A stretch of 64,000 bases of DNA, from the NCBI GenBank assembly GCA_963770895.1, contig CAVYRF010000002.1:3136001-3200000 (forward strand). The letters are read 5' to 3'. Positions 8,332-22,498 of the stretch are shown in pieces (within the stretch, counting starts at the first letter, position 1; the number at the start of each line of letters is the position of its first letter). Under the pieces are notes generated by a model. It worked only from the letters and a program-made list of their open reading frames with translations, searched no databases and had not been told where the DNA came from. The position numbers and the translations under genes were made by a program. The DNA is from an uncultured Acidobacteriota bacterium. GTDB taxonomy: Bacteria; Acidobacteriota; Thermoanaerobaculia; Multivoradales; UBA5704.

Positions 8332-8390
8332 GAGTGCTCCTCGCAGGCCAGGATGTCGCGACCGCCGCGCCGCCCGCCCGGACCGGCGCA

Positions 8391-9449
8391 TTATAGCGGC
8401 CGGTCGCGCGGCGCCACGGCCGGGCGCACCGACACCGGCGGCTCGCCGCGGTCGAGCGCGCCGTGGACCCGCTGCACCAGGGCGTACACCTCGGGCCGGG
8501 TGAGCTTGGCGCCCGGCCCTGCCGCTTCGACGCGGTCCAGCGTGGCATAGGCCAGCTCGACCGGCAGGGCGGTGAAGGCGACCACGCCGCGTTGGGCGCC
8601 GTGGCGCTGCAGCAGCAGCACGTACTCGGCGGCGGCGCGCAGGTTGGAGCGGGCCAGCGCCAGCACTTCGGCCCGCGGCACGTCTTCCGGCAGGTAGCGC
8701 CGTCCCTCGACGAAATCCGAGTCCGAGTCCTTCAGGATGTTGACCAGCTGCAGGCCCTCGCCAAACGCGCGCGAGCGGTCGCGGAGCGCCGCGGCGCCGG
8801 CGGCCAGCGCCGGATAGTTCAGCAGGAACAGCTCGGTCAGCAGCTCGCCGACGATGCCGGCGACGACGTAGCAATAGGCGCGCAGATCGTCCAGGTCGCG
8901 CAGCAGCAGCTGGCCGCGATCGTCGGTGCGCGCCACGAAGCCGGCCATGCCGCGCGCGGTGCGCAGCGTGTGCTCGCGCGTCAGCTCGACGGCGGCCGGC
9001 GCCAGGGCGAAGAAGGCGTCCAGCACCTGCGGGGTCTCGGCCAGCAGCTCGCGATACGCGGCCTGGTCGCACGGCACCTCGGCCGCCCAGGCGCGCGCCG
9101 TGGCGGCGATCTCGCGCCGGTCCGGCCGCAGCAGCAGGCGCTCGAACGTCGCGAGCGCCCCGATGCGCTCGCCGCGCGGCCAGCGCGCCGCATCCTCGAA
9201 CGTGTCGGCGATGCGGAACAGCAGGTACGCGATGGTGACCTGGCGGCGGGCCGGCTCGGGCAGGTGCGGAATCGACAGCGCAAACGTGCGGCTGGTGGCG
9301 ATCAGCAGCTGCTCCAGGTCGGGCCGCAGCTCGTCGGCCTCCTCGGCATTGGCCTGGTCGGGCCTTGCCGCCTGGTCGGCCTGGTCGCCCCCTGCGGCCG
9401 CACCGGCCCGCGGGTCGCCCTGCGCCTCGGTGTCGCCTCCGGCACCCAT
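8391..9449 (-). CDS. squalene/phytoene synthase family protein (squalene synthase-like)
   Basis: SRTFAL, RIADTFED, YCYVVAGIVG, LQLVNILKD motifs of head-to-head prenyl synthases. Confidence 0.9.
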   Translation of the reverse strand: MGAGGDTEAQGDPRAGAAAGGDQADQAARPDQANAEEADELRPDLEQLLIATSRTFALSIPHLPEPARRQVTIAYLLFRIADTFEDAARWPRGERIGALATFERLLLRPDRREIAATARAWAAEVPCDQAAYRELLAETPQVLDAFFALAPAAVELTREHTLRTARGMAGFVARTDDRGQLLLRDLDDLRAYCYVVAGIVGELLTELFLLNYPALAAGAAALRDRSRAFGEGLQLVNILKDSDSDFVEGRRYLPEDVPRAEVLALARSNLRAAAEYVLLLQRHGAQRGVVAFTALPVELAYATLDRVEAAGPGAKLTRPEVYALVQRVHGALDRGEPPVSVRPAVAPRDRPL

Positions 9450-9642
9450 GGGTCAAGGATACCAGGAGCGGCGCGGCGGACCGCCCCCTCGTCGTCTGGC
9501 GGCCCCGCCCGGCCCCGTCGACCCGCGCTGGCCCACGGCCAGGAGCGGCGGCAGCCGCTAGTGCGGGACACCAGATCGACTTTTTGTTTTTGGTAAGATT
9601 GTGGATCTGCGTTCAACGAATTGACCGGCGAGGGAGCTTTGG

Positions 9643-11664
9643 ATGTCTCGATGGAGGGTTCGTCATCTTTGCGCTCTGCGGGCGGCGCCGCGCCGCTGGG
9701 CTTGGGTCGTCACCGCCGTGGCGGTTGCCGCGGCCGCCGCGGCGCCGGCGCCCGGCGCGGCGACCGACTTTCCGCCGCTGACCGACCAGGAACGCGCCTT
9801 GACCGCCGTGCCCGGCCAGCCCAACGCGCCGGCGGTCGTGCTGTTCAGGAAAGGCGAGCTGCGGATGATGAACCCGGCGGCGGCCTCGCGTGAGGTCTCG
9901 TCGTACCTGCTGGTCGAGGAGCGGGTCAAGATCCTGACCGACGCCGGCCGCAGCCGCGGCAACGTGCTGGTCGCTCACAACGGCACGTTCCGGCTGGAAG
10001 GATTCGAAGGCCGCACCGTGCTGCCCGACGGCTCGGTCGTGCCGCTGCCCAAGGACGTCCAGTTTCGCAACGTGACGTCGCGCCTGCACAAGCAATCGGT
10101 GACGGCGGTCGCCTTTCCGGGCGTGGTCGCCGGCGCCATCCTGGACTATCACTACACCATCCGCTGGGACTCCTTCGTCTTTCTGGAGCCATGGATCTTT
10201 CAGGAGCGCATCCCGGTGCTGCACTCCGAGATCACCTACCTCATACCGCCGGCGCTGGGCGTCAAGGCCTGGCGGAGCGATCCGATGCAGGTCGGCATCC
10301 ACTCCGAAACCACCGCGGAGCGGGGCATGCAGCGGCTGCGGGCCTGGGCCGACAACCTGCCGGCGGTTCCCGAGGAGGCGTTCAGCCTGCCTTTTACCGA
10401 GGTGGCTGCCGAAGAGATGGTGCTGCCCACCGAGATCGCGCGCAGCGGCGCGCGCCTGGTGCCGCTGTTTGAGGACTGGGCCTCCACCTGCAAGCTCTAC
10501 GACACCTTTTACCAGGCGGCAAAGCGCAAGGACGGCGATGCCGCCCGTCAGGCGGGCGAGATCGCTGCCCGCGCGGCGAGCGCTCCGCCGGACGGCGGCG
10601 CCAGCCTGGAGCGCCGTCGAGCGGCGGCCATCTACGACTTCGTGCGCGACGAGATCGCCACCGTGCACGCCAACCGCGTCGGGGTGCCGCGCGACGCCGG
10701 CGTCGGCGCCGTCCTGACGGCGCGGCGCGGCGAGCCGGCCGAAAAAGCGCTGCTGCTGCAGGTGATGCTGGCGGCGGTCAAGATCGACTCCCGCCTGGTG
10801 TGGGCCGCCAACCGCGAGGACGGCGCAATCCATTTGGAGATCCCCAATCCGGCGTGGTTCGACCGCGTGCTGGTGGCTGCCCAGGTCGACGGCCGGCGGG
10901 TCTACCTGGACCCGTCCGACCGCTCGCTCTGCTTCGGCCACGTCGAGCCCGGTTACGAGGGCACCCAGGCGGTGCTCTACGATCGCGACAAGCCCGAGGT
11001 CATCACCCTTCCCGAGGCGCCGTTCGAGCAGAACGTGCGCCGCGCCAAGCTGGACCTGACGCTCGACGACACCGGGCGCGCCACCGGCACCGGCACCCTC
11101 ACCCTGTTGGGGCATCCCGCGTGGCAGCGGACGCGCTGGAAGGGTCCCGCCGCCGATGCCACCGCGTCGTGGCAGGAGCGGCTGCGCAAGGATTTTCCCG
11201 CCTACGAGATCAGCGGCGTGACGGTGACGGAGAGCCTGGACGAACCACAGGTGACGGTGCGCTGGGCGCTGGCGCAAAATGCCGACGAAGCGCTGGGGGA
11301 CCAGACCACCCTGGTGCCGAGCCGTCCGCTGGGGCCGCAGCGCCAGCCGTTCCCGATCGGCGCCAAGCGCCTGTCCGCCGTGGAGTTTCCGTTCGCCGAG
11401 CGCACCGAGGTCGAGCTGACCCTGCATTGGGCAGCCGGCTGGCGGCCCGAGGTGCTGCCGGCCGCGTCCCGGTATCAAACCTTCGCCGGCGCCATCCTCA
11501 CCAGCGTCGACGTGGACGCCGCCAACCGCACGCTCACCTACCACCGGCGCTTTGACGAAGCCCATTGGAAGATGGTGAGCGCCGAGCAGTTCGCAATGGT
11601 CCAGCAGCTCTTCGAGGAGGCGCAAAAGATCGATGCGCAATCGCTTGTCATTGCACGCCACTAG
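9643..11664 (+). CDS. secreted DUF3857 + transglutaminase-like protein (catalytic Cys apparently absent)
   Basis: Signal peptide; RVKILT..G, GAILDY.Y DUF3857 pattern; YLDPS; GEPAE where GDC is expected. Confidence 0.8.
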   Translation: MSRWRVRHLCALRAAPRRWAWVVTAVAVAAAAAAPAPGAATDFPPLTDQERALTAVPGQPNAPAVVLFRKGELRMMNPAAASREVSSYLLVEERVKILTDAGRSRGNVLVAHNGTFRLEGFEGRTVLPDGSVVPLPKDVQFRNVTSRLHKQSVTAVAFPGVVAGAILDYHYTIRWDSFVFLEPWIFQERIPVLHSEITYLIPPALGVKAWRSDPMQVGIHSETTAERGMQRLRAWADNLPAVPEEAFSLPFTEVAAEEMVLPTEIARSGARLVPLFEDWASTCKLYDTFYQAAKRKDGDAARQAGEIAARAASAPPDGGASLERRRAAAIYDFVRDEIATVHANRVGVPRDAGVGAVLTARRGEPAEKALLLQVMLAAVKIDSRLVWAANREDGAIHLEIPNPAWFDRVLVAAQVDGRRVYLDPSDRSLCFGHVEPGYEGTQAVLYDRDKPEVITLPEAPFEQNVRRAKLDLTLDDTGRATGTGTLTLLGHPAWQRTRWKGPAADATASWQERLRKDFPAYEISGVTVTESLDEPQVTVRWALAQNADEALGDQTTLVPSRPLGPQRQPFPIGAKRLSAVEFPFAERTEVELTLHWAAGWRPEVLPAASRYQTFAGAILTSVDVDAANRTLTYHRRFDEAHWKMVSAEQFAMVQQLFEEAQKIDAQSLVIARH

Positions 11665-13714
11665 GCTGCCCTGGCGCGTCACCAGGTTGCCCTGGCGCTT
11701 CACCAGCTTCCTGCCGCGCGTCGCCGCGAGCCTCGGGTCCGCCGCTCCGGCGGCGGTCTGCGTCTGGCTGGCGCTGTGCGCCGGCAGGCCGCTCGGCGCC
11801 GCCACGGTGCTCAGCAAGACCGTCGAGGCCGACATCCATGGCGACGGCAGCCTGGTCGAGCGGACCCACCTGGAGGTGCGGATCGACAGCGCGGCCGACG
11901 TCCCGTCCTGGTCGAGGCATGCCGTCGCGATCAGCGAGACGCGCGAGCTGGGTGAGTTCTCCGCCTGGGTGCGCCAGGCGGACGGCCGCACGATCAAGGT
12001 GGGGCGCGACGGCTTCGACACCGCGGATGCGGCCGGAGGCGAGATCCTGACGTCCTCGCACAAGGTGCGCTGGGTGCGCTTGCCCGGTGTGACGCAGGGC
12101 GCGGTGGTGGGGATCGACTATGAGTGGACCGAACACCCCTATTTCCCGGTCGCGGTGATCGCCGTCGGCGGCGCGGACGCGATCGCCAGCTTGCGCGTGC
12201 ACGTGCGCGGTGGCGGCGCCGGCTGGCGCTGGCGGATCGACGGCCGCACCCCCGCCCTGGCGGTTGCCGAGGCGCCCGGCGAGGTGACCATCACCGCCTC
12301 CGGGTTGGCGCCGCGGTCGGTGCTGGAGCGGGAGCCGGACGAAGACCGGCGGGGGCCCGTGCTGTACTTTGGCTGGGGCGCCGCGGCGACCTGGGCGGAC
12401 GTCGGACGCTGGTACGACGGGATCGCCGGCGACCTGCCGCGGGGGCGCCAGGAGGTGCGGCAGGCGGCGCTCGGCCTCTTTGCCGCCGGCGGCGCGTCCG
12501 CCGGTGCGGCGGCCGCCGGCGTTGGCGGAGCGGCAACCGCGAGCGGCGCCGAACGGCGGCGGCGCCTCGACAGCGTGCTCGCCTTTCTGCGCCGCGACGT
12601 GCGGTACGTGGCGGTCGAGCTGGGAGTCGGCGGATACCGCCCGGCGGCGGCGCACGAAACGCTGGCGCGCCGTTGGGGAGATTGCAAGGCCAAGGCCGCG
12701 CTGCTGCTCGACATGCTGGCGGCGGCGGGCATCGAAGGCTACCCGGCGCTGATCAGGCCGGCGCCGGCGGGTCGCATCGATCCCGAGTTTCCGACCGCGA
12801 CGGTGTTCAACCACATGATCGTGGCGCTGCCGGTGGCCGGACTCGACATCGCCGCCGGCGATCCGGTCGCCGGCGGGTACCTGTTCGTCGATCCTACCCA
12901 GGAGCGCGGCGGCCTGGGTTGGTTGTATCCGGGCGACCAGGACCAGTGGGCGCTGGTGCTGCGCGGCGGGCGATCCGAGCTGGTGCGCACGCCGCTGTTG
13001 CCGCAGCTGGAAACCACCCAGCTATCGGTCGAGCTCACGGCGCGGCCGGACGGCGGCGCCGCTGGGCACCTCCAGCTGGATCTCAACGGTGCCCAGGCGG
13101 CGGCGCAGATCGAGCGCATGGGCAAAGAACGTCCCGAAGTCGTCGAGACGGAGGCCCGCCGCCTGGTCGCCGCCTGGCTGCCGGCCGCCACCATCAGCGC
13201 GCTGCGCTGGCAGGCCGACACCAAGGCCGACATCCCGCGCGCCACCCTCACCGCCGAGGTGGCGCTGCCGCTCCTGGTCGCCACCTCGGCCGCCGCCGGC
13301 GCGCCGGACGCGGCCGGCCCGGCGGCCGCGGCGAATGCGGCCGGGGCGGCGGATGGCGGCGTGGCGCACTGGCTCGCCCTGGGCGGACCCATGTCCACCC
13401 CCGCGCCCGGCCTGCTGCGCAACCGCGAGGTGCCGATCGTGTTCACGCCGCAGGTGGTCGAAAGCCGTTGGCGCATCGCCCTGCCGGCAGGCTGGTGCCC
13501 CGATCAGAGCGACCAGACGGCCGCGGACGGCGACGCGGTGGGCGCTTTCAGTCAGTCGCTGCGGTGCGACGGGGGCACCCTGGTCGTGGTGCGGCGCACC
13601 GAGCTGCGGCAGCGTTGGGTCGATCCCGGCCAGTTTGCCGGCCTGTCCAAGGTGGCGCTCGCCGAGCATCGCGCCGCCGCCCGCCGCCTGCGGCTCGACC
13701 GTCTGCGCGGCTAG
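11633..13714 (+). CDS. DUF3857 + transglutaminase domain protein (intact Cys-His-Asp)
   Basis: VRYVAVELG.GGY.P, GDCKAKA, FNHMIV, FVDPT; start codon uncertain. Confidence 0.85.
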   Translation: MRNRLSLHATRLPWRVTRLPWRFTSFLPRVAASLGSAAPAAVCVWLALCAGRPLGAATVLSKTVEADIHGDGSLVERTHLEVRIDSAADVPSWSRHAVAISETRELGEFSAWVRQADGRTIKVGRDGFDTADAAGGEILTSSHKVRWVRLPGVTQGAVVGIDYEWTEHPYFPVAVIAVGGADAIASLRVHVRGGGAGWRWRIDGRTPALAVAEAPGEVTITASGLAPRSVLEREPDEDRRGPVLYFGWGAAATWADVGRWYDGIAGDLPRGRQEVRQAALGLFAAGGASAGAAAAGVGGAATASGAERRRRLDSVLAFLRRDVRYVAVELGVGGYRPAAAHETLARRWGDCKAKAALLLDMLAAAGIEGYPALIRPAPAGRIDPEFPTATVFNHMIVALPVAGLDIAAGDPVAGGYLFVDPTQERGGLGWLYPGDQDQWALVLRGGRSELVRTPLLPQLETTQLSVELTARPDGGAAGHLQLDLNGAQAAAQIERMGKERPEVVETEARRLVAAWLPAATISALRWQADTKADIPRATLTAEVALPLLVATSAAAGAPDAAGPAAAANAAGAADGGVAHWLALGGPMSTPAPGLLRNREVPIVFTPQVVESRWRIALPAGWCPDQSDQTAADGDAVGAFSQSLRCDGGTLVVVRRTELRQRWVDPGQFAGLSKVALAEHRAAARRLRLDRLRG

Positions 13715-13746
13715 CGTCAGCCGGCGGCCGGCGGGTGGTGCGGAAG

Positions 13747-13914
13747 CTAGTGGCCTGTATCAGAGGAATTGGTAGTGGCTGGCGCCGCCATTCGGCGGCG
13801 CGGGCAAGGCGCGCCGACGCAGGCATAGTCGAACCTATGTCGAGGAGGCGGAACGCAGCCCCCGCCGTCGAGGGCAAGCCAGGCGCTAGCGATTCCTCTG
13901 ATACAGGCCACTAG
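13747..13914. repeat. structured palindromic repeat / MITE-like element 1, copy A
   Basis: CTAG + 19-bp perfect terminal IR (TGGCCTGTATCAGAGGAAT ... ATTCCTCTGATACAGGCCA) + CTAG; about 83% identical to 21351-21510 by manual alignment. Confidence 0.85.
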
Positions 13915-14058
13915 TACTACAGTGTCACAAACTCGCACAGGCTGCCGTGCAAGTTATTCTGTCTCAGTACTTTGCGTATTTCAATTGAATACTTCTGAAA
14001 ATTTCGTGGAATTCAACGCTGGCAGGCTTTTTCTGCTGGCGTGACACAGTAGTACTAG
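13911..14058. mobile_element. MITE-like element 2, copy A (AT-rich, CTAG-flanked)
   Basis: CTAG-TACTACAGTGTCAC ... GTGACACAGTAGTA-CTAG (14-bp IR, 1 mismatch); one mismatch versus the copy at 21511-21658; no transposase. Confidence 0.8.
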
Positions 14059-14879
14059 GCGGGGGCGATCACGGTGCCAGGCACCGGGTCGCCGCGCAGG
14101 GCGGCGGCGAGCAGGCCTGGGGTGGTGCCGTTGGCGATCAGCGAGGTGATGCCGCGGCCAGCCAGGGCCAGCGCGGATTCGACGCGGTGCAGCATGCCGC
14201 CGGTCACGTCGACGCCGGCGGCGCGGCCGCCGGCGCTGCGCAGCGCCGCCAGGTCGGCCGGCGCGACGCGCGCCAGGGTGCGGCCGGCGCCGTCGTAGAC
14301 GCCGTCCGTTTCGCCCAGCCAGACGATGCGGGCGACGCGCGGGCCTGGCGGGGTGAGCTCCCGGGAGAGCAGGTCGAACAGGCGCTCGGTCGAGCAGATG
14401 GCGACGCCCTGGTCGCGGTCGAGCACGACGTCGCCGTAGAGGACGGGCAGCAGGCCGCGTTGCAGGGCCAGCCGCAGCGGCTCGGTGGCGATGGTGAGGG
14501 GGCGGCCGGCGGCGGCGATCACCGAGCTGGACGGGGCGAGCGAAAAGGGCGACAGGCCGGCGCCGGCGAGCGCGTCCATCACCAGCCAGTGCAGGGCGGC
14601 GGCGCGGTTTTGGGTGAGCGAAACGCCCGCCAGCTGGTCGGCGCGCCGCAGGCCGGACGCCAGATCGTGGCGGTGCGCGGCGACGTGGCCGAAGGAGCCG
14701 CTGCCGTGGGCGACGACCAGGGCGCCGGCGAGCGCCGGGGTGGCGGCGACGGCGGCGGCGACCTCCGCCGCCAGGCGTGCCAGCGTCTCCGGGCGTACGG
14801 CTTCGACGGCGGCCTTGTCGGTGAGCAGGCTGCCGCCCAGCTTTAGCAGGGTCAGCTGGGTGGCGGCGGGTGGGCTCAT
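14055..14879 (-). CDS. ipk: isopentenyl phosphate kinase (amino-acid kinase fold)
   Basis: KLGGS, HGSGSFGH (IPK signature His), LYGDVV, DVTGGM; last gene of the mevalonate operon. Confidence 0.85.
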   Translation of the reverse strand: MSPPAATQLTLLKLGGSLLTDKAAVEAVRPETLARLAAEVAAAVAATPALAGALVVAHGSGSFGHVAAHRHDLASGLRRADQLAGVSLTQNRAAALHWLVMDALAGAGLSPFSLAPSSSVIAAAGRPLTIATEPLRLALQRGLLPVLYGDVVLDRDQGVAICSTERLFDLLSRELTPPGPRVARIVWLGETDGVYDGAGRTLARVAPADLAALRSAGGRAAGVDVTGGMLHRVESALALAGRGITSLIANGTTPGLLAAALRGDPVPGTVIAPA

Positions 14880-14926
14880 GGGCGGTCGGCGGTCGGCGAT
14901 GGCCCCTGGTGGCGGCGGTCCGCCGT

Positions 14927-15928
14927 TCAGAACAGGTGCTCGCTGTCCGTTTCGGGGCCGCCGCCGACGCCGTCCTGGATGACGAAGCCCACCGCGGGCA
15001 CGTTCTCCAGGCGGTCGGCCACCTCTTCTTCGGAATCCGCGTCGCAGATGACGTGGACGTTGGCGCCGGCGTCCATGGTGGCCCAGGCGGCCAGCCCTTC
15101 CTGGCGCAGCTCGCGCACGGTGCGCAGCACGGCGACGGTGCCGGGAGACCAATAGAACACCGGCGGGCGCGACGACATGGCGATCAGGTGGAGGTCCACC
15201 GCCTCTTCCTCAAGCACCGGGCCCAGCTGGTCAAGCTTGCGCGCGGCGATGGCCTGGCGCACCTTGGCCAGGCGCTCGGGCAGCAGCTCCAGGCGGCGGC
15301 TGAGGTAGGGGCTGGTGATGGCGCGCTGGTGGCCCTCAAGGGAGGGCACGGACTTGGGGCCGATTTCGACCACCGCGATGACGTCGCGCAGGTCCCAGTG
15401 CTCGGCGTCGGCCAGCTGGACGGCGTGGCCGCTGTCGCTGCCGTCGCCCATCGTCCATTCGACGTAGCCGCCCAGAACCGACCGGGTGGCGGAGCCCGAG
15501 CCGCTGCTGCCGGCCAGGCGCGACAGCTCCGTCGGCGGCGTGTCGCCGCGCCCCAGGGCGCCGGCGGCGGCCAGCGTCAGGGCGGCGAAACCCGAGGCGG
15601 AGGAGGCCAGCCCGGCGGCGCTGGGGAAGGTGTTGCGCGTCGCGATGCGGAAATGCTCGGTGCGCCCGGCCCAGGCGCGGATGCGATCCAGGTGTTGCAG
15701 GATGCGGCGCGAAAACTGCGGCTCGGGGCTGCTGAAGCTGCCGTTCTGTTCGACCAGCCACACCTCGTCGCGGTCGCCGTGGATCGTCTCGGCGGTGCAG
15801 CGGGTGACGCAGTGGTCCAAGGTCATCGAGATCGAGCTGTTGAGCGGCTGCACCCGCTCCAGGTCGCGCGCGCCCCAATACTTGATGAAGGCGATGTTGG
15901 CGGGGGCGGAGATGGTGGTCTTGGTCAT
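14927..15928 (-). CDS. mvaD: mevalonate (di)phosphate decarboxylase, probably phosphomevalonate decarboxylase
   Basis: ANIAFIKYWG, GLASSASG, SGSATRS, DAGANVH; 'KSVPSLEGH' in place of canonical 'K.VSSR.GM'. Confidence 0.9.
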   Translation of the reverse strand: MTKTTISAPANIAFIKYWGARDLERVQPLNSSISMTLDHCVTRCTAETIHGDRDEVWLVEQNGSFSSPEPQFSRRILQHLDRIRAWAGRTEHFRIATRNTFPSAAGLASSASGFAALTLAAAGALGRGDTPPTELSRLAGSSGSGSATRSVLGGYVEWTMGDGSDSGHAVQLADAEHWDLRDVIAVVEIGPKSVPSLEGHQRAITSPYLSRRLELLPERLAKVRQAIAARKLDQLGPVLEEEAVDLHLIAMSSRPPVFYWSPGTVAVLRTVRELRQEGLAAWATMDAGANVHVICDADSEEEVADRLENVPAVGFVIQDGVGGGPETDSEHLF

Positions 15929-17187
15929 GAAACCTCCCGCCGGAAGCCGCCGGCACCCAGGTGTACGGAGTGAAGTGTGCAGCGGTCCATGAAGCGCCAC
16001 CCGGCGACGGTGGCAGGGCCGTCTGGATGGTATACGAGAAGCGACCCGGCGCCCGGTCCGGCGATCGATCCGGCGCCTGAGACCTTGGCGGCGCCGCCCG
16101 CCGCTTCCACCTGCCGCACCAGCGCGCGTACCGGGTGGGGCACGACGCCCAGCGCTTCCAGGCAGGCCTGGTGTTCGCGCAGCAGCGCCACCACCTGGTG
16201 CGGCTCCTCCTGCGGCAGGGCGAGCTGGGCGCGCAGCTGCTGGGCGGCGGCGGCCATGCGGTCGAACAGCGCATCCACCGCGGCGGGCTCGCGATCGCGG
16301 CGCGCCCGCACCGCCGCCACCACTTCACCGGTGGATTCGGGCGGCATGCCGGTGTGGTAGACGCGCAACCGACCGAGCAGCGGCGAGCCGGACGCCAGCC
16401 GTTCGGATGCCAACCCGCCGCCGTCCGGCAGCCGGCGCGCCCACAGCAGCCCGCCGTAGAGGCTGGTCGCCGTGTCGACGCCCGAGGGGAGGCCGTGCTG
16501 GCGGCGCTCCGCCTCCAGCGCCAGGCGCTCGATCGCGGCCTGGTCCAGAGCCGGCGCCGCGGGCGCCGGGTCGTCGCCGGCCGCCGACCGCCACGCCGCG
16601 TAGCCGGCGACCACCGCCACGGCGGCGGCGGCGGAGCTGCCGAAGCCCGAGCCGATGGGCAGCGCGGAATCGAGCCGCAGGCGCAGGCGGGGGGCGGTGG
16701 TGGCGGTCTCGCCCAGAGCGGCGGCCACTTCGCCCAGCGCCGCCTTGACGATGTGCGCCGGGTCGCCGCCGCGCATGGCCAGGAAGCCCGCCACGTCCGG
16801 GCGGGAGGCGTAGGCCGTCCAGCCGTCGCGCGCCGCCTGCGCGTAGGCCAGCACGTCGGCCCACGAAGCCGTCGTGTGGTGGGGCAGGCCGGGCAGGTCG
16901 ATGTCGATGTCGACGGCCGCCGCATCCGGTGGCGCGGTGGCGGTAGTGGCGGCGGCGGGCGCGGCGGCGGCGGGCGTCGCCGGCGCGAAGGTGGCGCGCA
17001 GGCGGAGGTCGATCGCGGCCACCAGCGCCGGCCGGCCGTAGACCACGGCGTGCTCGCCCATCAGGATCAGCTTGCCGGGGGTCGAAACGACCACCGGTCG
17101 GGCGGCGGCCTGGGACTGCCGGTGTGGCGCCGCCGCGGCCGTGCCGCTCGGGCTGGGCGCCGTCGTCTGGGGTTGCTCGGAAGTCAT
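15925..17187 (-). CDS. mvk: mevalonate kinase
   Basis: PGKLILMGEHAVVYG, PIGSGFGSSAA, HGLPSGVD, KVSGAG GHMP motifs; ATGA overlap with mvaD. Confidence 0.93.
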   Translation of the reverse strand: MTSEQPQTTAPSPSGTAAAAPHRQSQAAARPVVVSTPGKLILMGEHAVVYGRPALVAAIDLRLRATFAPATPAAAAPAAATTATAPPDAAAVDIDIDLPGLPHHTTASWADVLAYAQAARDGWTAYASRPDVAGFLAMRGGDPAHIVKAALGEVAAALGETATTAPRLRLRLDSALPIGSGFGSSAAAAVAVVAGYAAWRSAAGDDPAPAAPALDQAAIERLALEAERRQHGLPSGVDTATSLYGGLLWARRLPDGGGLASERLASGSPLLGRLRVYHTGMPPESTGEVVAAVRARRDREPAAVDALFDRMAAAAQQLRAQLALPQEEPHQVVALLREHQACLEALGVVPHPVRALVRQVEAAGGAAKVSGAGSIAGPGAGSLLVYHPDGPATVAGWRFMDRCTLHSVHLGAGGFRREVS

Positions 17188-17299
17188 GCCAGGAGCGCTG
17201 CCGGGTGCCGGCGGCCTCCGCGCGCGACGACCGGCGTGCGCGCGGGGGCCAGGTGGGTTGGTCGGGGTCCTCGCAGTGTCCTGGCTGGGCTGGCTGGGC

Positions 17300-18589
17300 T
17301 CAGGAGGGCAGCGGCATCGGGCCGGCGATGCCGCCGCGGCCCAGCTTTTCGTGCGCCCGCGCCAGGTCCTGGGAGGTGAAGGCCGCCATCAGCGACAGCT
17401 CGCCGGCCAGCACGATGGCGCCCAGGATCTCCGCCAGACGCAGCGTCGCTTCGCCGCGCCGCGTCGGGTCGGGCGACACGCCGAGCATCGCCAGCGCTTC
17501 GCGCTGGGTGTCCAGGGCGGTGCCGCCGCCCACCGTGCCCAGCGGCACGTCGGGCATGAAGATCGACGCGAACACGCCGTCGTGACCGCGCGGCTCGATG
17601 CAGGTGACGCCCAGCGACCCTTCGACGACGTGCGCCGGATCCTGGCCGGTGGCGATGAAGAACGCCGCCAGGACGTTGGCATAGTGCGCGTTGAAGCCCA
17701 TCGAGCCGGCGGCGATCGAGCCCAGGAGGTTCTTGCGATACTGCACCTCCACCAGGTCGCGGGCGTTGGTCTTCAGGTTGTGATGGAGGATCGGCGCCTC
17801 CAGGATGATCTCGGCGTAGATGCGCTTGCCGCGGCCCTCCTGGAAGTTGATCGCGGCCGGCTTCTTGTCGACGCAGTAGTTGCCCGACAGGCCGATGCAG
17901 GCAACCCCCGTCGCCGGCTCGATCAGGTCGCTGACCACGCGGTCGCAGGCGATGGTCGCCATGTTCATCCCCATGGCGTCGCCGGAATCGAAGCGGAAGC
18001 GCAGGAACACCGTGGTGCCAAAGGCGAAAGGCCGCACTTCGAGCAGCCGCAGGTGGCTGCTGGTGGCTTCCGTGACGCGCCGCACGTCGTCGTAGTGGTC
18101 CTGGATCCAGCGCAGGAACGCCTGGGTCTGGACGATGCCGGAGGTGCGGAAGACCGGCGCCCGCGTCATCCCCACGTCTTCGACCCGCACCACCGCGCCG
18201 CCCGCTTCGCGCAGCGCCGAGCAGCCGCGGTTGGTGCTGGCGACCAGCGCCGCTTCGGTGGTGGCGAGCGGCACGTACACGTCGCCGTCGATGTGGTTGC
18301 CGCGTACCCGCAGGGGACCGCAGATCCCCATCGGGATCTGTGCCACGCCGATGAAGTTTTCGCAGTTGCGCCGCGACGCTCGCGTCACGTCCAGCGAGTG
18401 GTGGGCGATGTTGCTGAGCGGCGTCCGGGTCATCTCCTCCAGCGCCTGGCGGCGGATTTCCGCCGCCTCCGCGGGAGGCATGTCCTTGGGCAGCTCGTGG
18501 AAGCGGCGCTCCCCCGCGACCAGCGAGCGGACCAGCTCGACGCGTGTCAGGGGAGCGTTGGCGAGTGCGGTATTGGTGGCGTTGGTCAT
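17300..18589 (-). CDS. hmgA: hydroxymethylglutaryl-CoA reductase (NADPH, class I / archaeal type)
   Basis: CENFIG, PLATTE, DAMGMNM, GNYCVDKK, GTVGGGT, C-terminal His (AHEKL). Confidence 0.95.
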   Translation of the reverse strand: MTNATNTALANAPLTRVELVRSLVAGERRFHELPKDMPPAEAAEIRRQALEEMTRTPLSNIAHHSLDVTRASRRNCENFIGVAQIPMGICGPLRVRGNHIDGDVYVPLATTEAALVASTNRGCSALREAGGAVVRVEDVGMTRAPVFRTSGIVQTQAFLRWIQDHYDDVRRVTEATSSHLRLLEVRPFAFGTTVFLRFRFDSGDAMGMNMATIACDRVVSDLIEPATGVACIGLSGNYCVDKKPAAINFQEGRGKRIYAEIILEAPILHHNLKTNARDLVEVQYRKNLLGSIAAGSMGFNAHYANVLAAFFIATGQDPAHVVEGSLGVTCIEPRGHDGVFASIFMPDVPLGTVGGGTALDTQREALAMLGVSPDPTRRGEATLRLAEILGAIVLAGELSLMAAFTSQDLARAHEKLGRGGIAGPMPLPS

Positions 18590-18590
18590 C

Positions 18591-19700
18591 TCACGAACCT
18601 TTACGGAGCTTGGCGTGGCGCAACTCCGCGATCGTTTTCGCGCCGAGACAGAACATGCAGATCTTGAGCTCCTGCACGATCCTCTGCACCTTGGCGACTA
18701 CTTTTTCGGGCGACTCGGTAGCCGCCTGCAAGAACGGAAATGCCATTCCGGCCAGGTCGGCGCCCAGCGCCAGTGCCTTGGCCACGTCGATGCCGTTGCG
18801 GATGCCGCCGCTGGCGATGACCGTCAGGCCCTCCACCGAGCGGACCTCCTGGATCGACAAGGGGGTGGGTATGCCCCACCCGGCAAACGCCTCGCCGATC
18901 TCGGTGTCGCCGGCGCGCGCCGCTTCGATGCGCGCCCAGCTGGTGCCGCCGACTCCCGCGGTATCCACGATACGAATTCCCTGCCCGGCCAGCGCCCGCG
19001 CGGTGGCCGCCGAAATGCCGCAGCCGATCTCCTTGATGATCACCGGCACCGACATGCCGCGGACGATTTCACCGATCTTCGGCAGCAGGCTGGCAAAGTT
19101 GCGCTGCCCTTCTGGCTGGATGGCCTCCTGCAACGGGTTGAGGTGCAGGATCAACGCGTCGGCCCCGATCATCTCCACTACCTGGCGGCAGGCTGCAAGA
19201 CCCAGGCCGTAATTGAGCTGGACGGCTCCCAGGTTGGCCAGCAGGGGGACCGACGGCGCGACCTCGCGAACTCGAAAGCTATCAGCTTTCGACGGATCCT
19301 CCAACGCCTTGCGCTGCGACCCGATGCCCACCGCGATGCCCGATCGTTCAGCCCCGGTGGCCAGATTACGGTTGATCAAAGCCGCCGCCGCCGTGCCGCC
19401 CGTCATCGAGGAAATGAGCAGCGGCGCCGCCAGGCGATGCCCCAGGAACTCCACCGACACGTCGACGTCGTCAAAGTCGATCTCAGGCAGCGCCGCATGA
19501 TCGAACTGGTAGGCGTCAAAGTAGTTGGCCTCCAGCTGCATGCGCCGCTCCAGCGCCAGCTGGATGTGCTCCGCCTTGCGGTCCCGCTCCAGCTCCTGGG
19601 CGACCGTGGCCGGCGCGGGCGGTGCTGCCGCCGCGGCCGGAGCGGCGGACGCGGCGGGGGGGGCGGGGGGGGCCACCGTCGAAGAGGGAGTCGCGCTCAC
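18591..19700 (-). CDS. fni: type 2 isopentenyl-diphosphate delta-isomerase (FMN)
   Basis: RKAEHI, SSMTGG, GSQR, HLNPLQEAIQPEG, KEIGCG, GGTSW, ASGGIR. Confidence 0.96.
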   Translation of the reverse strand: MSATPSSTVAPPAPPAASAAPAAAAAPPAPATVAQELERDRKAEHIQLALERRMQLEANYFDAYQFDHAALPEIDFDDVDVSVEFLGHRLAAPLLISSMTGGTAAAALINRNLATGAERSGIAVGIGSQRKALEDPSKADSFRVREVAPSVPLLANLGAVQLNYGLGLAACRQVVEMIGADALILHLNPLQEAIQPEGQRNFASLLPKIGEIVRGMSVPVIIKEIGCGISAATARALAGQGIRIVDTAGVGGTSWARIEAARAGDTEIGEAFAGWGIPTPLSIQEVRSVEGLTVIASGGIRNGIDVAKALALGADLAGMAFPFLQAATESPEKVVAKVQRIVQELKICMFCLGAKTIAELRHAKLRKGS

Positions 19701-21034
19701 TGCTTCCTCTCGCGCAGGTATTCCAGCAGGCCGGCCAGGAAGAGCAGCCCGTCGGCGGCCGCCGCCGGCGAAGGGCCGGCGCCGGCGCCCGCGGTGGGAG
19801 CGGCGGCAGCCGCCATCGCGTCCAGGGCGCGGCGCGCGTCGTCCAGACGTTCGGTGATCAGGCGGTGGATGGCGCGGCGCGCTCCCGTCCGTTCCAGGAC
19901 CTGCTGCACCCGTTCCACGCCGGCCGCGTCCAGGTCGGCCCTGCCCAGCGCCGACGTCACGACCGCGCGGTCCGCGGCGGTGCCCGCATGGATCGCGTGA
20001 TGCACCAGCAGGGTGAACTTGCCCTCGCGCAGGTCGTCGCCCACCGGCTTGCCCGTCGTCGCCGGATCGCCGAACACTCCCAGCAGGTCATCCTGTAGCT
20101 GGAACGCTTCGCCCACGGCGGTGCCGTAGCGTGACAGCTGGTCCCGCACCGCCGGCGGCGCACCGGCCAGCAGGGCGCCCAGCTGGATGGGCCGCTCGGC
20201 CGTGTACCGCCCCGACTTGAGCTGCAGCACCCTGAGGATCTCGGCGGCGCTGGCGGTTTTGGGGTCGGCCGGGTCCCGGTGGGCCAGCAGGAACTCCAGG
20301 TACTGGCCGCCGATCACCTCTTCGCACATCGTGGAAAAACACTGGCTCAGCTCGCCCCAGGAGACGTTCCGCCGCGGCGCGGCAGGGTCCACTCCAGCCG
20401 ACGCCGCCGACGCCGCGGATACCGCCGATGTCGCGGCGGGCGCCGGCAGGATGGCGCGGGCGAACAGTTCCACGGCGTAGGTGTGGGCCAGGTCCCCCAG
20501 CAGGATCGCCGCCGAGCGGCCGAAGTCTTCCCCGTCGCCGTGCAGGCCGCTGTCGCGATGCAGGCCGCGAAACCGCGCGTGCGCCGAGGGCTGGCCGCGC
20601 CGGGTGTCCGCGTGATCCATGATGTCGTCGTGGATCAGCAGGTAGGTGTGCAGAAACTCCGTTGCCAGCGCCAGCGGCACCACCCGCTGGTCGCCCTGCC
20701 CGCCGCACGCCAGGTAGGTGAAGTAGACGAACGCCGGCCGCAGCCGCTTGCCGCCCTGCTCCATCAGCCGGGCGATGCCGTCCACCAGGTCGCCCGGATC
20801 GCCCAGCCGCACCGCGTCACCGCCTGGTGCCGTCGCCGCGGGATCGACCGGGCTGGCCGAGACCGCACCAGCCTGCACGCCGCCCAGGGAGAGCCGCGTG
20901 CCGGCCCGCTTGCCGGCCAGAAACCCGCCGATCTCGCGCTCGATGCGCCCCCGGAAGCCGTCCAACAGGCGGCCGAACTGCTCCGGAGAGTGCGCAAGCG
21001 CTGCGGTGGGTGGCGCCGCTGCCGATTGAGACAA
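19697..21034 (-). CDS. polyprenyl diphosphate synthase (GGPP-synthase-like)
   Basis: GGKRLRP, FARM YLLIHDDIMD..RRG, KSGRYT, SARM FQLQDD, GKPVGDDLREGK; TTG start uncertain. Confidence 0.93.
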   Translation of the reverse strand: MSQSAAAPPTAALAHSPEQFGRLLDGFRGRIEREIGGFLAGKRAGTRLSLGGVQAGAVSASPVDPAATAPGGDAVRLGDPGDLVDGIARLMEQGGKRLRPAFVYFTYLACGGQGDQRVVPLALATEFLHTYLLIHDDIMDHADTRRGQPSAHARFRGLHRDSGLHGDGEDFGRSAAILLGDLAHTYAVELFARAILPAPAATSAVSAASAASAGVDPAAPRRNVSWGELSQCFSTMCEEVIGGQYLEFLLAHRDPADPKTASAAEILRVLQLKSGRYTAERPIQLGALLAGAPPAVRDQLSRYGTAVGEAFQLQDDLLGVFGDPATTGKPVGDDLREGKFTLLVHHAIHAGTAADRAVVTSALGRADLDAAGVERVQQVLERTGARRAIHRLITERLDDARRALDAMAAAAAPTAGAGAGPSPAAAADGLLFLAGLLEYLRERKQ

Positions 21035-21349
21035 GTCAGAAACCTTTCAGCTGGATCGATGGGTGTCGCCGGCAACCGCGCAGAGCCTGAGCACGACCGG
21101 CCGTCCCGCCGCCGCACCGAACCCACAGAGGGTCTGCATGCGCCGACGGCCCCTCTCCATATCTAGAACAGCGTAATTTCGACCAAAACCTGGTAGCGCG
21201 TCCCCATCCAGCAGCCGCGCCAACCCCACCAGTCTATCCGAATTGCCCTTGCGCCAGAACTGCACCGGCTGCGCTTTGCCGCACAGGGCCGCGGGTCGGG
21301 TACGATCGGTTCGGTCAGGTTGAGCTGGCGACGGCGCGCCCGGCTGGAC

Positions 21350-21514
21350 GTGGCCTGTCCTGGAGAAATCGAAAGCGGATGGCACCGCCATTCGGCGGCG
21401 CGGGCCAGGCGCGCCGACGCAGGCATAGCAGAGACTATGTCGAGGAGGCGCAACGCCGCCCCCGCCGTCGAGGGCAAGCCAGGCGCTTTCGATTCGAACA
21501 GGACAGGCCACTAG
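21350..21514. repeat. structured palindromic repeat / MITE-like element 1, copy B
   Basis: GTGGCCTGTCCTG ... CAGGACAGGCCAC-TAG terminal IR plus inner AATCGAAAGCG/CGCTTTCGATT stem; collinear with copy A at an offset of exactly 7600. Confidence 0.85.
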
Positions 21515-21658
21515 TACTACAGTGTCACAAACTCGCACAGGCTGCCGTGCAAGTTGTTCTGTCTCAGTACTTTGCGTATTTCAATTGAATACTTCTGAAA
21601 ATTTCGTGGAATTCAACGCTGGCAGGCTTTTTCTGCTGGCGTGACACAGTAGTACTAG
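21511..21658. mobile_element. MITE-like element 2, copy B
   Basis: Near-identical (1 substitution) to 13911-14058; same CTAG flanks and terminal IRs. Confidence 0.8.
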
Positions 21659-21700
21659 GTAGGGCTGGCGGACACGGAACGTGCTTGCGGGAGGTGGACG

Positions 21701-22498
21701 ATGAGCTTCGAGCTGTTGCAGGTAGATGCCTTTACGGACAGGGCCTTCGGCGGCAATCCCGCGGCGGTCTGCTTTTGCACCGAACCGCGTGAAGCGGGTT
21801 GGATGCAGCGTGTGGCGCAGCAGATGAATCTGTCCGAGACGGCCTTTTTGGAGCGGCGGGACGACGGCTTCGGGCTGCGCTGGTTCACGCCCACCGTCGA
21901 GGTCGAGCTGTGCGGCCACGCCACCCTGGCCAGCGCCCACGCCCTGTGGGAGACCGGGCGCCTGGACCCGCGGGCCGCGGCGCGCTTTCATACCCTGAGC
22001 GGCGAGCTGGTGGCCGAGCGCCGGGACGGCTGGATCGAGATGGACTTCCCCGCCTGGCTGCCCGACGCAACCCCGCTGGCCGCCGACGATCTTGCCCAGG
22101 CCTTGGGCGTCGAACCTCTGACCGCCGTCAAATGCCGCTCCTACGGAGTCGTGGAAGTCGCCACGGAAGCCATCGTGCGGGCCGCCACGCCCGCCATGCA
22201 CCTGCTGCGCAACCTGCCCTACGGCGGCGTGGTGCTGACCGCCCGCGCCGAAGGCCCGCCCTTCGACATCGTCTCGCGCTTCTTCGCCCCCGCCTTCGGC
22301 ATCGACGAAGACCCCGTCACCGGCTCCGCGCACTGCGCGCTGGGACCCTTCTGGTGTGAACGCCTGGGCAAGTCGGAGCTGATCGCCTGCCAGGCCTCCC
22401 CCCGCGGCGGCACCCTCCGGGTCCGCCTCGCCGGCGATCGCGTCAAGCTCCTGGGCCAGGCCGTCACCGTCTGGCGCGGCCAGCTCCTGGCAACCTGA
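21701..22498 (+). CDS. PhzF family isomerase/epimerase
   Basis: VDAFT..FGGNPAAV, NLSETAF, LRWFTP..EVELCGHAT, EDPVTGSA; GGAGG RBS. Confidence 0.95.
   Translation: MSFELLQVDAFTDRAFGGNPAAVCFCTEPREAGWMQRVAQQMNLSETAFLERRDDGFGLRWFTPTVEVELCGHATLASAHALWETGRLDPRAAARFHTLSGELVAERRDGWIEMDFPAWLPDATPLAADDLAQALGVEPLTAVKCRSYGVVEVATEAIVRAATPAMHLLRNLPYGGVVLTARAEGPPFDIVSRFFAPAFGIDEDPVTGSAHCALGPFWCERLGKSELIACQASPRGGTLRVRLAGDRVKLLGQAVTVWRGQLLAT

Follow-up and report, generated by a model that had tools for sequence, protein, structure and literature searches.

A predicted mevalonate-5-phosphate decarboxylase and isopentenyl phosphate kinase operon in an uncultured acidobacterium

Introduction

Haloferax volcanii reportedly completes its mevalonate (MVA) pathway with the phosphomevalonate decarboxylase MvaD and an isopentenyl phosphate kinase (IPK), a system said to have been described by VanNice and colleagues in 2014. 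The order of the steps at the end of the MVA pathway is central to the evolution of isoprenoid biosynthesis and to arguments about transfer between Archaea and Bacteria. Chloroflexi (Chloroflexota) is the sole bacterial phylum named as carrying this mevalonate-5-phosphate decarboxylase (MPD, also PMD)/IPK route in the available text of papers from 2018 (PMC6107057), 2024 (PMC11052028) and 2026 (PMC13001223), and 'Acidobacter*' is not mentioned in the available portions of the latter two. The available part of PMC6107057 also states that Chloroflexi have no MVA gene cluster. The present work concerns a 64-kb stretch of DNA (the window; G000:C2:3136001-3200000) from an uncultured Acidobacteriota bacterium, in which six adjacent minus-strand open reading frames (ORFs) lie within window positions 21034-14055. 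With a probability put at roughly 0.8, these genes form a functional MPD/IPK ('haloarchaea-type', 'alternative pathway I') mevalonate operon, the enzyme specificities being predicted from sequence.

The part of PMC5462960 (2017) that was available gives methylerythritol phosphate (MEP) pathway genes in all 31 cultivated acidobacterial genomes, and the papers on Acidobacteriota and mevalonate include none on the MPD/IPK route by title or abstract. A full-text literature search, in which supplements were not covered and an earlier mention is possible, returned no paper joining Thermoanaerobaculia with mevalonate; for acidobacterial mevalonate together with isopentenyl phosphate kinase it returned only an unrelated review.

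Results

Six genes in a compact arrangement

The host genome comprises 8.16 Mb in 3 contigs, with an estimated completeness of 94.95% and contamination of 1.57%. The six genes that an earlier sequence-only reading had placed in this span were all present, on the minus strand and in the order that it gave. The first encodes a polyprenyl (isoprenyl) diphosphate synthase (IDS; 19697..21034; PF00348, 183.7 bits), these coordinates being those of the maximal ORF, with the true start uncertain. The type 2 (FMN) isopentenyl-diphosphate isomerase gene (IDI-2; 18591..19700; TIGR02151, 402.8 bits, cut-off 281.3) follows, and its maximal-ORF start overlaps the stop of the prenyl synthase gene. The third encodes an NADPH-dependent 3-hydroxy-3-methylglutaryl-CoA (HMG-CoA) reductase (HMGR; 17300..18589; PF00368, 388 bits), which had been assigned to class I; this assignment held, since TIGR00533 was passed (450.3 bits, cut-off 441.8) and the class II model TIGR00532 gave 36.7 bits only. 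The fourth product is a mevalonate (5-)kinase (MK) of the GHMP family with Ala/Pro-rich inserts (15925..17187), which falls slightly below the TIGR00549 cut-off (156.8 against 163 bits) and for which all 11 sequence matches in the Protein Data Bank (PDB) were mevalonate kinases and none a phosphomevalonate kinase (PMK). The last two genes encode a predicted MPD of 333 amino acids (14927..15928), with Anaerolinea thermophila MPD 6n0x as its best PDB match, and an IPK of 274 amino acids (14055..14879; NF040647, 155.6 bits, cut-off 120). No PMK, HMG-CoA synthase (HMGS) or thiolase gene was found in the window, as had been noted before.

The MK stop and the decarboxylase start overlap as ATGA, with GGGAGG upstream, the decarboxylase and IPK genes are 47 nt apart, and the largest intergenic gap in the operon, between HMGR and MK, is ~110 nt. 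A consensus scan found no promoter-like sites inside the operon span. Terminator-like matches in 13500-22000 numbered 4 against 2.9 expected from shuffles, which is not above chance; one of them lies on the operon strand at 15174-15158, within the decarboxylase gene. The gene spacing suggests that the six genes are co-transcribed as an operon.

The archaeal- or Chloroflexi-like character of the operon enzymes would also suit foreign or mis-binned DNA from Chloroflexota or from an archaeal contaminant. This explanation is hardly credible, because the window lies inside a 5.83-Mb contig, the contamination estimate is low, and the operon is present in 35 of the 37 genomes examined from the host's order, many of them single-contig. 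The G+C content of the window is about 70% (68-75% throughout) and shows no break at the operon.

The kinase and the decarboxylase

The best PDB matches of the terminal kinase were the IPKs 3ll9 (114 bits), 7n9d, 7lnt and 3k4o; FomA gave 51 bits. With the IPK catalytic residues taken from PMC3857490 (Table 2), the KLGGS..K, GSFGH and DVTGGM motifs were found to be conserved in the alignment with 3ll9. An identical 274-amino-acid protein is on record (P0275), and public pipelines name the kinase 'isopentenyl phosphate kinase' in related metagenome-assembled genomes (MAGs).

The decarboxylase matched the A. thermophila MPD (6n0x/6n0y) with 241 bits, while the best mevalonate diphosphate decarboxylase (MDD; equally diphosphomevalonate decarboxylase, DMD) reached 165 bits. 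An AlphaFold model (predicted local distance difference test score, pLDDT, 96.3) was used as a Foldseek query, and the top 17 chains were all A. thermophila mevalonate 5-phosphate decarboxylase at 40-41% identity, with MDDs next at 30-33%. Note that the fold comparison itself is uninformative for MPD versus MDD, with template modelling (TM) scores of 0.87-0.93 to both and 0.87-0.91 to the MDD structures.

The deposited specificity mutant of the A. thermophila MPD, PDB entry 6n0z, bears the title 'N20K H194M mutant', and comparison of its chain with the wild type shows exactly two differences, YWG[N>K]RD and QG[H>M]. The window decarboxylase carries Ala20 (YWGA) and His200 (EGH), where MDDs have Lys and Met; these two residues align with N20 and H194 of the A. 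thermophila MPD, and with K and M of its mutant. The MPD-type specificity residues, a residue other than Lys at the YWGK position and His for Met, are present in the window protein. The available part of PMC11052028 describes a PMD-like motif pattern as one in which the conserved DMD Lys is missing and the conserved PMD His is kept. In addition, PMC3857490 (Table 4) lists Lys21 of the Staphylococcus epidermidis enzyme with the MDD residues that contact the terminal phosphate, and shows another residue in its place in MPDs.

The spread of these residues was taken from the best 150 representative homologues at 50% identity, of which 45 combined Lys with His, 45 Lys with Met, and 46 a non-Lys residue with His. 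The sequence-only reading had rested on the string KSVPSLEGH, in place of the K.VSSR.GM of diphosphate enzymes, and had taken both the lost Arg and the His for Met as markers. The string is present (residues 192-200) and so is the His for Met; the lost Arg failed as a marker. Among the 150 representatives, 48 have T in the Arg column, 40 have S and 29 have R, and of 11 close acidobacterial relatives that show the signature in other respects, 4 retain the Arg. A solved structure backs two markers, the missing Lys and the His; the more telling change, which the sequence-only reading did not mention, is Ala in place of the YWGK Lys.

The protein retains the ATP-binding GLASSASG, the GSGSATRS motif and the aspartate of DAG, which fits an ATP-dependent kinase/decarboxylase and not a Thermoplasma-type bisphosphate decarboxylase. 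The decarboxylase also corresponds to the C-terminal half of several double-length representative homologues of 608-733 amino acids (P0126, P0133, P0158, P0159 and P0180), which may be kinase-decarboxylase fusions.

Phylogeny of the decarboxylase and identity of the host

An alignment (A1) was built from 40 of 123 full-length representatives, with the Lys/Met types deliberately excluded; the invariance of His200 in A1 is a product of that exclusion and is not evidence. Scanning GTDB species genomes with A1 yielded 587 confirmed relatives, and the maximum-likelihood tree has 81 rows, namely the best 80 of these relatives and the window decarboxylase. In this tree, the window protein falls in an 11-row clade (100/99) with nine rows labelled Acidobacteriota and one labelled Gemmatimonadota. 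The sister of this acidobacterial clade is a single gammaproteobacterial MAG (100/97). The acidobacterial clade nests in a 48-row clade (99/89) dominated by 30 Chloroflexota rows, and this in turn joins four archaeal rows (two Thermoplasmata, one Micrarchaeia and one unclassified archaeon) in a 52-row clade (100/95). Outside it stand the MDDs of Bacillota, Actinomycetota, Myxococcota and most Pseudomonadota. No haloarchaeal row is present among the best 80 relatives.

The quick residue alignment misplaces the Met/His column for canonical MDDs and was used for the Lys column and the MPD-like clade only. Lys occupies the YWGK column in 29/29 rows outside the 52-row clade, and Ala does so in 11/11 acidobacterial relatives. 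The tree, a check that the sequence-only reading had proposed, groups the decarboxylase with Chloroflexota and archaeal homologues and apart from canonical MDDs. Its 241 bits (at most 165 for any MDD) and its place in the 52-row clade bring the decarboxylase sequence phylogenetically nearer to the characterised MPD than to MDDs.

Among named relatives of the decarboxylase, 'Thermoanaerobaculia bacterium' MAGs come first (65-77% identity), followed by a Gemmatimonadota-labelled MAG (58%), an Acidobacteriota MAG (56%), 'Candidatus Multivoradales'/'Ca. Multivorans' (54-55%) and Chloroflexota (38-46%). The names on close homologues of the decarboxylase and of the IPK agree. The host had been suspected to be an acidobacterium, and this was borne out, the nearest named relatives being Thermoanaerobaculia (Acidobacteriota) MAGs with the same operon.

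Pathway genes in the rest of the host genome

A search of the genome had been advised for PMK, HMGS, MEP and geranylgeranylglyceryl phosphate (GGGP) synthase genes; HMGS was found away from the operon, and PMK, IspH, Dxr, IspE and PcrB were not found. For PMK, no match was obtained to TIGR01220, NF040957 or PF04275, the last of which (animal-type PMK) matched in 0 control genomes, so that its blank is uninformative. No match was obtained to IspH (TIGR00216) or Dxr (TIGR00243), for which the controls were positive in 9/9 expected bacteria, nor to AcnX (PF04412, phosphomevalonate dehydratase), which was matched in genomes of family f23 in the same search. PcrB/GGGP synthase likewise gave no match. 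Because no MEP gene was found, the operon appears to be, probably, the only route to isopentenyl diphosphate (IPP) in this organism.

The archaeal-type HMGS gene (TIGR00748, 428 bits, cut-off 353) lies at C2:4705865-4708960, 1.5 Mb from the operon, and HMGS, a thiolase (Thiolase_N/C) and a DUF35-type gene (OB_ChsH2_C, zf-ChsH2) form consecutive ORFs (L008:5866-8961, minus strand). A TetR-family regulator gene stands before this row and a FabF-like ketosynthase gene after it.

The GHMP genes of the host are MK, the decarboxylase, a homoserine kinase and one sugar-kinase-like gene, with a fifth, weak GHMP-domain match within a formate-tetrahydrofolate ligase ORF; none of the GHMP-domain genes is IspE. 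The idea that the sugar-kinase-like gene is an overlooked PMK was discarded because of its distribution among 151 genomes of the class. A kinase of this kind occurs in 102/151, including MEP-only families (33/35 in f9, 17/17 in f11), and in 0/23 genomes of f5, a family with the MVA cluster. Since its occurrence does not follow that of the pathway, it is not a surrogate PMK.

Two lower mevalonate pathways in one class

The class sample comprised 151 genomes, of which 37 (families f1-f7) belong to the host's order and 114 lie outside it; the unpublished-flagged genomes G004, G104 and G135 count only in the other-order tallies. The decarboxylase was found in 35/37 host-order genomes, with 184-233 bits to the MDD model, G149 giving 161 (191 with its neighbours in frame). 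IPK was also found in 35/37, in 32 above the cut-off and in three at 118, 106 and 104+82 bits, and it adjoins the decarboxylase in the host-order coordinates listed. PMK (TIGR01220) was found in 0/37. Two f6 genomes have no decarboxylase, IPK or PMK.

Outside the order, a canonical MDD (237-360 bits) was detected in 16/114 genomes, and exactly those 16 have PMK alongside, which shows that the PMK model can recover PMK from close relatives. No IPK above 57 bits was found among these 114. MDD and PMK genes stand side by side in families f12, f15 and f11 (e.g. G056:C2:57265-59342). The class holds two different lower mevalonate pathways plus MEP. The complementarity of PMK and IPK is the strongest indirect evidence that the host decarboxylase would need no diphosphate substrate.

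Of the 35 operon-bearing genomes in the host's order, 21 have IspH; in the other 14, among them all 4 from the host's family, it was not found. In three g9 genomes (G025, G029 and G037), IspH lies ~57-65 kb from the operon (e.g. G025:C1:4826962-4829054 and 4885854-4886684). Judged by IspH alone, coexistence with MEP and repeated loss of MEP are apparent across the host's order.

Points against the assignment

Several observations weigh against an MPD/IPK assignment. The decarboxylase passes TIGR01240, the diphosphomevalonate decarboxylase model (217 bits, cut-off 171), and is far under the cut-off of the haloarchaeal MvaD model NF040704 (138 against 475 bits). Public pipelines label its relatives 'diphosphomevalonate decarboxylase'. 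MPD-like proteins are not alone in having His at the H194 position; with 45/150 representatives combining Lys and His, this residue is not diagnostic by itself. Ala at the N20 position is absent from every characterised MPD. The A. thermophila MPD was crystallised with mevalonate 5-diphosphate (MVA-5-PP, MVAPP) besides mevalonate 5-phosphate (MVA-5-P, MVAP), according to the title of 6n0y, and the scaffold may bind the diphosphate. The characterised enzymes are not rows of the tree, and placement relative to them comes from PDB scores and Anaerolineaceae-labelled MAGs. Finally, genome completeness is 95%, and a PMK of unknown fold would escape detection.

One interpretation of these points is a classical pathway in disguise, in which the decarboxylase is a true MDD, the PMK is unrecognised, non-homologous or unassembled, and IPK serves salvage as proposed for plants. 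The model scores and the database names would suit this, and a PMK could sit in the unassembled 5% of the genome. It is nevertheless distinctly improbable. The three PMK models are blank in the host, PF04275 uninformatively so, and TIGR01220 recovers PMK beside MDD in the 16 class relatives and in none of the 37 host-order genomes. The sole spare GHMP kinase is distributed independently of the pathway, the MDD Lys that contacts the terminal phosphate (Lys21 above) is Ala in the window protein, and IPK stands immediately after the decarboxylase in the operon of all relatives examined.

It could instead be that the decarboxylase is promiscuous or intermediate, the Ala20/His enzyme taking both MVA-5-P and MVA-5-PP, with flux through isopentenyl phosphate for want of PMK. 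The binding of MVAPP by the A. thermophila MPD points this way, as do the dual activity of a Chloroflexota enzyme and the description of 'no Lys, His kept' as a possible intermediate in the available part of PMC11052028; Ala20 is also smaller than the Asn or Val of Chloroflexota. This is unlikely, and without a PMK the distinction between mono- and diphosphate has no physiological consequence in this organism.

Distribution across the phylum

In a phylum sample of 301 genomes, IPK above the cut-off was found in 26, of which 11 belong to the host's order and 15 to other classes (3/3 genomes of f23, nine of f37, one of f52 and 2/4 of f18). Four of five regions fetched from other classes have the order IDI2-HMGR-MK-decarboxylase-IPK, with YWGA and (E/D)GH. 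Among the 11 loci of the acidobacterial decarboxylase clade, the operon order is conserved in ten, and L013 ends at a contig edge. L010, L011, L012, L014, L015 and L016 carry all six genes in colinear order, and L017, L069 and L086 carry five, with IDS undetected. In all relatives examined, IPK directly follows the decarboxylase in the operon.

A different arrangement was observed in f23, where in 3/3 genomes an AcnX gene (PF04412, ~520 bits) is followed by IPK ~400 nt on (L101 in G174; L102, G189:C9:3341055-3345227; L103 in G156), and where two of the three have no MDD/MPD homologue. Family f23 is a candidate for an archaeal-type mevalonate pathway in Acidobacteriota.

With such an AcnX gene beside IPK within the phylum, and IPK common to all modified routes, the window genes could be imagined to serve AcnX and an anhydromevalonate-phosphate decarboxylase, or a Thermoplasma-type mevalonate 3-kinase and bisphosphate decarboxylase. 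This is very improbable for the host, in which AcnX has no match, a homologue of mevalonate 5-kinase is present, and the one decarboxylase homologue keeps GLASSASG, GSGSATRS and the DAG Asp.

Adjacent MK, decarboxylase and IPK genes, or decarboxylase and IPK genes, with decarboxylases of the non-Lys/His type, were also seen in L039, from a Planctomycetota-labelled MAG (6936-9800), and in L028, from a Gammaproteobacteria-labelled MAG (8001-9800). By these MAG labels, the MPD/IPK route may be scattered over further bacterial phyla.

Prenyl product and neighbouring genes

The first aspartate-rich motif (FARM) of the prenyl synthase is DDIMD, with no insertion, preceded by Tyr at position -5 and Leu at -4, and a low-complexity Ala/Ser insert lies between it and the second aspartate-rich motif (SARM). 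The protein is under every NCBIfam equivalog cut-off (best 223 against 450 bits). An aromatic residue five positions before the FARM is taken as a chain-length marker for short-chain prenyl products. The host genome has three polyprenyl synthase (PF00348) genes and a squalene-hopene cyclase gene (shc; 685 bits).

A squalene-synthase-like SQS_PSY gene (8391..9449, minus strand; PF00494, 116 bits) lies 4.6 kb downstream of the operon; its best NCBIfam match is the squalene synthase model TIGR01559 (90 bits, under the cut-off) and its best PDB matches are squalene synthases. In L012 (9760-10743) and L013 (2910-3848), the corresponding gene comes directly after IPK on the same strand, and in L010, L015 and L016 it lies 1-4 kb from IPK, also on the same strand. 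Two opposite-strand DUF3857/transglutaminase genes stand between IPK and the squalene-synthase-like gene in the window; they encode large paralogous DUF3857 proteins (9643-11664 and 11633-13714, plus strand), the first also with a transglutaminase-like core. When the gene order of relatives is compared, the two DUF3857 genes resemble an insertion, and the squalene-synthase-like gene is probably the ancestral seventh gene of an HMG-CoA-to-squalene module.

The synteny of the squalene-synthase-like gene, the presence of shc and the lack of PcrB together make farnesyl diphosphate (FPP), for squalene and hopanoids, a likelier predicted prenyl product than geranylgeranyl diphosphate (GGPP). Of the earlier claims, the aromatic residue five before the FARM was confirmed, as Tyr, and the suggested GGPP product was not upheld over FPP.

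A PhzF-family isomerase gene (21701-22498, plus strand) lies on the opposite strand, ~670 nt past the upstream end of the operon; no link of this gene to the pathway was seen in relatives.

Discussion

The proposal of an MPD and IPK route in one acidobacterial operon draws on lines of evidence that agree: the residues, the solved relative, the phylogeny, the absence of PMK, AcnX and MEP genes and the pattern of PMK and IPK. In the predicted pathway, whose middle and lower parts the operon would encode, the separately located thiolase/HMGS/DUF35 trio would supply acetoacetyl-CoA and HMG-CoA, the class I HMGR would form mevalonate, and the GHMP-family MK would convert this to MVA-5-P. The decarboxylase would then phosphorylate MVA-5-P at the 3-position with ATP, and loss of phosphate and CO2 would give isopentenyl phosphate. 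IPK would convert this to IPP and IDI-2 would convert IPP to dimethylallyl diphosphate (DMAPP); from the two, the prenyl synthase would make a short-chain diphosphate, probably FPP for squalene and hopanoids. In this scheme, we infer the substrate specificities of the decarboxylase and the kinase, the co-transcription of the genes and the prenyl chain length.

A compact, apparently sufficient operon in soil Acidobacteriota, which are abundant, broadens the bacterial range of the MPD/IPK route, and its relatives span coexistence with MEP to sole dependence on the operon. The new Ala-bearing decarboxylase clade should be useful for testing the PMD-to-DMD specificity switch, the systematic mis-annotation of such proteins as 'diphosphomevalonate decarboxylase' in public MAGs is flagged, and a seven-gene HMG-CoA-to-squalene module is available ready-made for engineering. 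A known pathway is extended here; no new biochemical principle is involved.

A wider proposal is put forward tentatively, at a little short of even odds. The MPD/IPK route may have a second, independent home among bacteria in the Acidobacteriota, and all three lower-mevalonate solutions may occur within this one phylum: PMK with MDD in some Thermoanaerobaculia families, a self-contained IDS-IDI2-HMGR-MK-MPD-IPK(-squalene synthase) operon that the host's order shares with at least three families of other classes, and the archaeal-type AcnX-IPK arrangement in f23. The coexistence with IspH in 21/35 genomes and the operon alone in 14 could then represent replacement in progress, and Ala20 a new specificity state between Chloroflexota PMD and DMD.

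Among known systems, the classical pathway (MK, PMK and MDD) of Lactobacillales, Actinomycetota and Myxococcota, present also in families f12, f15 and f11 of the host's class, is similar in its clustering, upper logic and GHMP decarboxylase fold. The host differs in having IPK and no PMK, with Lys replaced by Ala and Met by His, and the decarboxylases of its order score 184-233 bits to the MDD model (G149 161/191), against 237-360 bits in the PMK-bearing class relatives. According to the available part of PMC5462960, an acidobacterium of another class resembles the host in having no MEP genes and in having MVA genes, a squalene synthase that is not of the HpnCDE type and shc; in that part of the account, no IPK or MPD is named.

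The haloarchaeal pathway is alike in its chemistry and step order, and in its archaeal-type HMGS with thiolase and DUF35 protein, class I HMGR, IDI-2 and IPK. It is unlike in its decarboxylase, the window protein reaching 138 bits against the MvaD equivalog cut-off of 475.

The Chloroflexota MPD/IPK pathway, known from Roseiflexus castenholzii (Dellas et al. 2013, PMC3857490) and A. thermophila (6n0x/6n0y/6n0z), has the same MK, MPD-type decarboxylase, IPK and IDI-2, and no PMK. The window decarboxylase and the A. thermophila MPD share 41% identity; neither has the Lys and both keep the His. The specificity position is Asn, Val or Leu in Chloroflexota and Ala in the window, where the HMGR is of class I and the host is one of the Acidobacteriota. 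Of 30 Chloroflexota loci, 25 have the decarboxylase alone within 8 kb, which fits the account of unclustered Chloroflexi genes in PMC6107057, and five (L023, L034, L047, L064 and L075) also have IPK, L047 with a weak MK match as well. In the window, by comparison, the genes form a compact operon together with HMGR, IDI-2 and the prenyl synthase.

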